DNA from: Mobula hypostoma
Lineage: Eukaryota
NCBI RefSeq assembly: GCF_963921235.1
Contig: NC_086108.1
Location: forward strand, 37,698,001-37,762,000
Length of the DNA: 64,000 nt
Direction: 5' to 3'
Under the pieces are notes generated by a model. The model saw nothing but the letters and a program-made list of their open reading frames with translations. It did no database searches and was not told where the DNA came from. The position numbers and the translations under genes were made by a program. Shown one piece after another: positions 33,491 to 34,983 of the stretch (its first letter is position 1; each line of letters begins with the position of its first letter).

Positions 33491-34453
33491 AACTCTGGTT
33501 CATCCTTGGGAGCAATTTCCAAATGCCTGAAGGTACCACGTTCATCTGTACAAACAATAGTACGCAAATATAAACACCATGGGACCACGCAGCCGTCATA
33601 CTGCTCAGGAAGGAGTCGCATTCTGTCTCCTAGAGATAAACGTACTTTGGCGTGAAAATTGCAAATCAATCCCAGAACTACAGCAAAGGACCTTGTGAAG
33701 ATGCTGGAGGAAACAGGTAGACTAGTATCTATATCCACAGTAAAATAAGTCCTATATCGACATAACCTGAAAGGCTGCTCAGCAAGGAAGAAGCCACTGC
33801 TCCAACACTGCCATAAAAAAGCCAGACTACAGTTTGCAAGTGCACATGGGGACAAAGATCTTAGTTTTTGGAGGAATGTCCTCTGGTCTGATGAAACTAA
33901 AATTGAACTGTTTGGCTATGATGACCATCGTTATGTTCAGAAGAAAGAGGGTGAGGCTTGCAAGCCAAAGAACACCATCCCAACAGTGAAGCATGGGGGT
34001 GGCAGCATCCTGTTCTGGGGGTGCTTTGCTGCAGGAGAGACTGGTGCACTTCACAAAATAGATGGCATCATGTGGAAGGAAAATTATGTGGATATATTGA
34101 AGCAACATCTCAAGACATCAGCCGGGAAGTTAAAGCTCAGTCACAAATAGGTCTTCCAAATGGACCATGACCCTAAGCGTACCTCCAAAGTTGTGGCAAA
34201 ATTGCTTAAGGACAACAAAGTCAAGGTATTGGAGTGGTCGTCACAAATCCTTGACCTCAATCCGATAGAAAATTTGTGGGCAGAACTGAAAAAGCATGTG
34301 CAAGCAAGGAGGCCTACAAACCTGACTCAGTTACAGTTCTGTCCAGAGGAATGGAAGAAAATTCCAGCAACTTATTGTGAGAAGCTTGTGGAAGGCAACC
34401 CAAAACGTTTGACCCAAGTTAAACAATTTAAAGGCAATGCTACCAAATACTAA
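33491..34453 (+). pseudogene. SB-like DD34E transposase pseudogene (about residues 20-340)
   Basis: One reading frame SGSSLGAISK...WSDETK...QMDHDPK...LNPIENLW...FKGNATKY*, with premature stops at 33653, 33746 and 34148, one codon deleted and no frameshift. Confidence 0.93.
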
Positions 34454-34681
34454 CAAAGTGTATGTAAACTTCTGACCCACTGGGAAAGTGATGAAATAAA
34501 TAAAAGTGGAAATAAATCATTCTCTCTACTATTATTCTGACATTTCACATTCTTAAAATAAAGTAGTGATCCTAACTGACCTAAGACGGGGAATGTTTTC
34601 TAGGATTAAGTGTCAAGAATTGTGAAAAACTGAGTTGAAATGTATTTGGCAAAGGTGTATGTAAACTTTTGACTTCAACTG
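33491..34681 (+). mobile_element. Tc1 transposon of the Sleeping Beauty (salmonid IR/DR) subfamily; 5' end missing, right IR/DR intact
   Basis: Transposase colinear with SB. Right end has two DRs (tgtatgtaaacttctgacccactg ... tgtatgtaaacttttgacttcaactg) followed by TA at 34682-34683. Confidence 0.95.
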
Positions 34682-34983
34682 TATGCTGTAAGTGCATAGG
34701 GCTCCCTAAAGTAGCTGTTGGGAAGTGATAGAGTATTAGTTATGATAATTTAGTTTGTGATTAAAGCAGTGGCTCTGGTATAGTGATGAGATGGGAGTTG
34801 GGGTGAATGCCAGAACCAGAAACATCCATTAACAGGCCCAGAACATTTTCTTTGACAGACCTGCAATACACCTGGAACTGAAAGAGCCTACTCTGCTTTG
34901 GATAGAGCACAAGGATAAAAAGGAAGGACTGTCAAAATAAGAATCTTGCTGGAATTTTCAAATTGTTTCCACTAACTAGCATA

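Follow-up and report, generated by a model that had tools for sequence, protein, structure and literature searches.

The window analysed here, the whole 64-kb stretch of DNA, carries three exons of KCNT2 on its minus strand, and in the intron between 51727 and 28867 (bounded upstream by the exon at 51727..51819 and downstream by that at 28727..28867, both on the minus strand) lies a transposable element antisense to the gene. The element, at 33460-34681, is a dead copy of a Sleeping Beauty (SB)-clade Tc1 transposon. A further KCNT2 exon on the same contig, found about 150 kb from the window by a search with the BK-channel family, is 100% identical to those of Mobula birostris and Hypanus sabinus, 98% to Pristis, 96% to Narcine, 88-92% to sharks, and 84% to Callorhinchus, and the best 120 of its 316 matches include no teleost-named proteins. 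The best single-domain chain for a globin exon of the same genome is PDB 1cg5 (87 bits; next 61), which we take to be stingray haemoglobin. As judged from these exon sequences, the host is a myliobatiform ray and not a teleost, in agreement with the original prediction of a cartilaginous-fish host.

Structure and decay of the KCNT2 intron copy

The copy begins with the last 20 bp of a left arm (33460..33479, minus strand), which duplicates, in inverted orientation, the 3' portion of the same element from transposase codon 273 on. This copy lacks the other ~415 bp of the arm as well as the left TA, and no further left-arm match was found elsewhere in the 64-kb window. Next comes an island of SB 5' UTR (33477..33493, plus strand), recognised by comparison with a complete element, L133, and the full-length ray copies L138 and L139; CAG is the overlap between this island and the arm, and CAAG (CAAC in the window copy) that between the island and the coding region. 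The dead DD34E transposase frame, corresponding to SB codons 20-340, occupies 33491..34453 (plus strand) and runs to a stop at 34451-34453 with zero frameshifts. Its catalytic triad is intact (D153 at 33890, D244 at 34163, and E279 at 34268), with the same residues as in SB100X (PDB 5cr4) and the ray family majority, and it matches SB100X with E-values of 1e-66 and 2e-47 and also the SB PAI domain (2m8e). The frame lacks codons 1-19 and a start codon, and contains three internal stops (33653, 33746, and 34148) and a 3-bp deletion near 34335. The right arm, a segment of ~434 bp (34252..34681, plus strand) whose mirror image forms the left end of intact subfamily members, includes the 228-bp right IR/DR (34454..34681, plus strand), with its inner direct repeat at ~34455-34484 and its outer one at ~34650-34681, and is followed by a TA target dinucleotide on the right side only (34682..34683). 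A frameshift-free frame with an intact DD34E triad and a right IR/DR of ~225 bp ending before TA had both been predicted correctly; the start of the element had been placed at 33491, overlooking the 20-bp arm remnant that moves the true start to 33460.

Aligned over 1198 bp, the window copy and L133 share 92.5% identity (92.7% in coding DNA, 92.5% in the right IR/DR), in line with the close resemblance of the right IR/DR to that of SB noted originally. The copy differs from L133, a natural full-length reference, at 47 of 319 codons, from the pT2 vector transposase P0133 at 50, and from P0124, likewise vector-type, at 52, close to the ~49 differences in 321 residues counted originally against SB. 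Fifteen of the 47 differences fall at arginine, and CpG positions have changed far more often (11/44) than others (44/1150), in keeping with the CpG decay proposed originally. This single copy shows no sign of function and is a member of the two-right-ended, non-autonomous subfamily described below, an anatomy that the original description had overlooked.

Several other repeats share the window. A multi-copy repeat at 33180-33413, with a depth of ~3400 in sequencing run X21, adjoins the broken left end, and a second, unrelated Tc1 derivative of ~410 bp (34984-35394), flanked by TA at either end, lies 300 bp beyond the SB copy on its right. This derivative contains a scrap of a transposase 3' piece at 35035-35252, which matches P0143 weakly, is 79% identical to a flank of locus L110, and is at high depth in run X21. 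Two fragments at 24328-25014 and 50463-50959 resemble the end of a hAT transposase and are presumably of Buster/Charlie type. Elsewhere in the genome, about 20 globin exons within less than 1 Mb (G000:C36:102311198-103198301) form a large haemoglobin array.

Forms of the element in the ray genome

The commonest form of the element in the ray genome has two right ends and no left end. In most of the top ray copies, the terminal 434 bp (codons 273-340 and the right IR/DR) reappear in inverted orientation directly upstream of codon 20, and the junction has three parts: the inverted arm, the ~15-nt 5' UTR island joined to it through the shared CAG, and the coding region joined through CAAG, a word that sits at both edges of a ~170-bp deletion, as seen in the full-length ray copies. 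A 25-nt pattern for this junction (at most one mismatch) has 624 matches in the genome and none in controls and, since it recovers 30 of 36 copies found by other means, we estimate ~750 two-right-ended copies. Their median length is 1636 bp, TA stands at both ends of 29 of 39 two-ended copies after removal of a row counted twice, and the flanks are unrelated and AT-rich, with A at -3 and T at +3 in 30/39 each. In a second set of copies of the family, TA stands at both ends in 39 of 47. The left arm, of which the window copy retains 20 bp, is complete in 25 of 29 junction-selected copies (excluding L129, which carries an internal inversion), and both arms share one master haplotype at three diagnostic sites. 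The interior of the left IR, with its half-DR enhancer, is absent from the window copy and from all 63 of the 63 two-right-ended loci; a distinct left IR/DR with half-DR is present in left-right and full-length ray copies.

A second derivative, the left-right deletion form, keeps the true left IR and has lost 170 bp (the inner DR tail, UTR, and start codon); its junction has 130 matches, again with none in controls. A search with the left-IR interior returned 176 candidates; the corresponding right-IR search returned only 138, and thus failed as a check and is unusable as a count. Full-length relics with 5' UTR and ATG number two among 40 scored of 169 candidates, and both carry stops; no intact autonomous copy was found, and none of the 119 scored matches begins at residue 1-2. 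The left-right deletion copies fall into two master haplotypes at reference positions 1334, 1433, and 1446, one that of L138 and one that of L139, with the same 5' deletion, which suggests recombination between masters. Two of them, L048 and L053, share a long branch and the same left flank and are likely products of a locus duplication. An independent two-right-ended variant at L147:1121-2739 has a shorter mirrored arm, a longer 5' UTR piece, and the same 170-bp deletion, hinting that the deletion preceded arm replacement.

The two arms of a copy share more variants than expected by chance. In the 44 copies that have both arms, 56 non-CpG variants of the right arm are repeated in the left arm of the same element, against a mean of 15.4 and a maximum of 31 in 20000 permutations of an arm-shuffling null, and 10 variants occur in both arms of one copy and nowhere else. 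Gene conversion between arms is the likely source of this sharing; errors in assembly polishing could also produce it.

Divergence from bony-fish elements and rival explanations

Our reference for divergence, L133, is a complete 1.64-kb element from a metagenome scan that yielded three loci, and is treated as salmonid-type. At the protein level it shares 98.8% identity with the transposase of the pT2 vector and 98.5% with P0001, a cluster that includes sequences from Oncorhynchus and Hucho; its DNA, judged by eye over the ~400 nt displayed, equals the Hucho SB entry of Jia et al. A plasmid collection gave no SB vector match, and the IR comparisons were therefore made with L133. The ray majority sequence, built from 125 distinct copies among 150 loci, lies at K2P distances from L133 of 2.7% (coding), 3.6% (right IR), and 8.5% (left IR); the two share 304 of 320 residues, with a dS of 0.041. 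Other ray copies shown are 92-95% identical to L133. As a host control, RPL3 codons 2-65 of the ray (L168) and Hucho differ, counted by eye, by 28 silent and 2 replacement changes, giving, over the 45.3 silent sites of this one 64-codon exon, a pS of 0.62 and a dS of ~1.3. Silent divergence of the transposon is thus ~30-fold lower than that of the host, the latter measured on one exon by eye.

Within the ray, divergence is 0.028, 0.025, and 0.029 at the three codon positions and 0.030 in the IR, copies differ from their own majority by 3.5-3.8% overall and ~3% outside CpG, and the tree is star-like. NG86 omega values of 0.66-0.83 within the ray might be read as selection, a reading we reject since shifted frames give 0.60-0.72. 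The equal decay of codon positions and IR, the shifted-frame omega, and the star-like tree argue for neutral decay after a burst. Between the ray master and other elements, dN/dS is 0.59 against L133, not significantly below 1 (p 0.34), 0.86 against L134, and 0.47 against L135 (p 0.04). As to age, tens of millions of years are likely; a date calculated from the per-generation rate of sharks would be hard to square with a master distance of 2.7%.

Horizontal transfer between bony fishes and rays, as originally proposed, is very likely given the dS gap (0.041 and ~1.3 are not comparable), the ray host, and contigs that cross both junctions. Vertical descent, from an ancestor shared by cartilaginous and bony fishes, would need a slow chondrichthyan clock or selection to maintain the similarity, and we regard it as extremely improbable. 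A shark mutation rate as low as 7e-10 per site per generation, given in the accessible text of PMC10587355, and a KCNT2 protein that is 86-89% identical between ray and bony vertebrates would both favour it, but silent sites of RPL3 differ by 62% in the ray-salmonid pair when those of the transposase differ by 4%, and the non-coding IRs are 91-96% alike even though ray copies decay neutrally, so that nothing conserves them; moreover, ray copies are farther from their own majority (3.5-3.8%) than that majority is from L133 (2.7%). Equally hard to credit is contamination or a chimeric assembly, with teleost or vector SB DNA placed among ray sequence. SB vectors and salmonid DNA are common, and most of the element-bearing public runs that we examined are not from a ray. 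In runs X23, X1, and X2 (organisms I, A, and B), the element has salmonid-type letters and a very high depth, and the ray intron is uncovered at 85% likeness; in runs X4, X8, and X12 nothing aligned to the ray intron or repeat DNA, a kind of blank that can be false. KCNT exon pieces in run X23 have 10/59, 3/33, and 6/40 differences and, as possible paralogues, serve as a rough control only. Against such an artefact, copies in the ray number in the hundreds and are scattered over dozens of contigs, every one with separate decay and a TA site of its own, and 16 family-wide residues differ from the salmonid type. Contigs of run X21, which may be the sample behind the assembly itself, match the window at 33263-33490 and 34659-35121 with 0 differences and so span both junctions, reaching 31 bases into the element on the left and only 25 on the right (below the 31-letter rule of the tool).

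If the transfer was real, the two-right-ended copies could still have arisen many times, or multiplied passively through segmental duplication or gap repair, and not by cut-and-paste of one founder. The variant at L147, with its different left junction, is an example of independent origin, and in the portions of PMC5224488 and PMC7827188 available to us the left end is the preferred, enhancer-bearing end of SB; both points favour this reading. Yet a single fixed junction recurs in all 624 matches, the median element length is 1636 bp, the flanks are unrelated and show the TA site and the A and T preferences at -3 and +3, and the same master haplotype occupies both arms, so that we consider such an origin improbable, if somewhat less so than vertical descent or contamination.

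Relatives, proposed history, and significance

The ray transposase is 93-95% identical in amino acids to SB and 82-87% to a Sparus/Prochilodus group. In a quick unrooted tree of 30 rows chosen from the matches, ray copies and P0070 form a clade (SH-aLRT 93) beside, not within, the salmonid clade (96). Seven sites in the first 400 coding bases distinguish the ray from L133 (two or three of them can arise by CpG decay), and among the 86 SB entries of supplement S2 of PMC9777934, compared by eye over ~400 nt, the ray state is found at 7/7 in Hetnil and 6/7 in Panhyp, labels that we interpret as Heterotis niloticus and Pangasianodon hypophthalmus; by eye, a double transversion at codons 96-97 occurs only in these two. 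The closest published relatives therefore appear, from these sites, to be the SB elements of Heterotis and Pangasianodon and not those of salmonids and, together with the position of the ray clade beside the salmonids, this makes a salmonid donor unlikely. Among 118 protein matches there is one named ray protein, and none among the best 120 shorter matches; this only named chondrichthyan match, P0070, is from Mobula hypostoma, which may be the host species itself. P0070 is a gene model named LACTB2 isoform X2 that consists mostly of this transposase, by exonisation or misannotation.

The ray family resembles SB (SB10/SB100X; PDB 5cr4 and 2m8e; P0133) and the salmonid Tss1-type elements in its DD34E transposase (93-95%), right IR/DR (96%), TA target, and overall length, and differs from them in its ray host, in 16 of 320 residues, and in that its common form lacks the left IR, half-DR, promoter region, and start codon; Hetnil and Panhyp, compared over their first ~400 nt only, differ in having teleost hosts (PMC9777934, as far as its supplement displays them). 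The accessible parts of Jia et al. 2022 (PMC9777934) report SB-clade elements from 107 species of ray-finned fish, from a single mollusc, and from no chondrichthyan, place a chondrichthyan ZB-like Tc1 DD34E element (label Calmil) in another clade at 52-54% to SB groups, and describe SB TIRs of up to 415 bp with a 3' TIR overlapping the frame, so that long-armed SB forms may already exist in teleosts. For the SB-like Tas1/Tas2 of Anisakis, the text consulted reports salmon shark bands by PCR only (PMC12441823). Tc1 transfer among fishes is common (Zhang 2020, PMC7070016; Muller 2025, PMC12400950), and the words shark and chondrichthyan are absent from these main texts, though their supplements may include such cases; a Tc1/mariner expansion in skates and rays is described in PMC12361510, in the part available without the word 'horizontal'. 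In the openly accessible literature, we found no description of SB in a ray. The rearrangement has a close parallel in Rpmar49 and Rpmar17, Rhodnius prolixus mariners in which, according to the available text of PMC4678618, the 5' part was likewise swapped for an inverted 3' part, leaving long TIRs with transposase homology from one progenitor, and the ray form shows the one-breakpoint 5' replacement and amplification with target duplications that define Rpmar49-type elements. The Rpmar elements are insect mariners with simple short ends and 13 and 205 copies, whereas the ray form is an IR/DR Tc1 with ~750 copies and, unlike mariner ends, the left end of an IR/DR Tc1 such as SB carries a known enhancer. 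In sum, horizontal transfer is well supported; the family is a known one, its new host class is one from which SB had not been listed, and the rearrangement belongs to a known kind.

With high confidence, we read the KCNT2 intron element as a dead non-autonomous copy of an SB-clade family, very likely acquired horizontally, that then likely spread mostly in two-right-ended form by means of transposase made elsewhere. An autonomous SB element would have entered the ray lineage, leaving the two full-length copies as relics. Codons 1-19 and most of the 5' UTR would then have been lost in a ~170-bp deletion between two CAAG words, and the left IR/DR exchanged, by a switch at the shared CAG, for an inverted version of the terminal 434 bp; the junctions are observed, and microhomology repair with template switching, in this order, probably produced them. 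The product, with four transposase binding sites and neither a half-DR enhancer nor an in-frame start for the PAI domain, would have been mobilised in trans by cut-and-paste, with hundreds of insertions at TA sites, as the observed TA ends and unrelated flanks suggest. The helpers would have died, copies would have decayed neutrally while their arms exchanged sequence, presumably by gene conversion, and the window copy would later have lost most of its left arm. Since the main ray form cannot encode PAI, it must presumably have been moved in trans, and the lack of both UTR and start codon in the two successful derivatives hints at silent passengers having outgrown the helpers on which they depended.

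According to the available parts of PMC7827188, PMC5224488, and PMC8151067, SB transposition requires four DRs and begins with contact at the left end, the half-DR enhances activity without being essential, and a doubled left end raises activity two- to three-fold. The ratio of 624 to 130 junctions is not a clean test of end preference and does not prove one for right ends, given that the left-right competitor has a damaged inner left DR, without its tail, and given founder effects. Right-right SB donors are reportedly weak. A more specific and rather doubtful scenario is that a tropical SB branch, kin to those of bonytongue and pangasiid catfish, jumped into stingrays, that the transposase there, with ray-specific residues that shifted its end preference, mobilised substrates with two right ends and no enhancer more efficiently than left-right ones, and that the long arms mend one another in the manner of palindromes.

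The known range of the SB clade, from which a clinical gene-transfer tool was derived, is here extended to a vertebrate class unlisted in the 2022 survey, on the strength of a dS gap that was measured. With tropical teleosts in place of salmonids as the apparent nearest kin, the search for a route and vector becomes narrower. The ray genome also offers a natural test of SB end asymmetry, with hundreds of insertions that have two right ends and no half-DR, and with 16 natural residue variants in the transposase; if true, a preference for two right ends in the ray would be a natural counter-example to the SB left-end rule.
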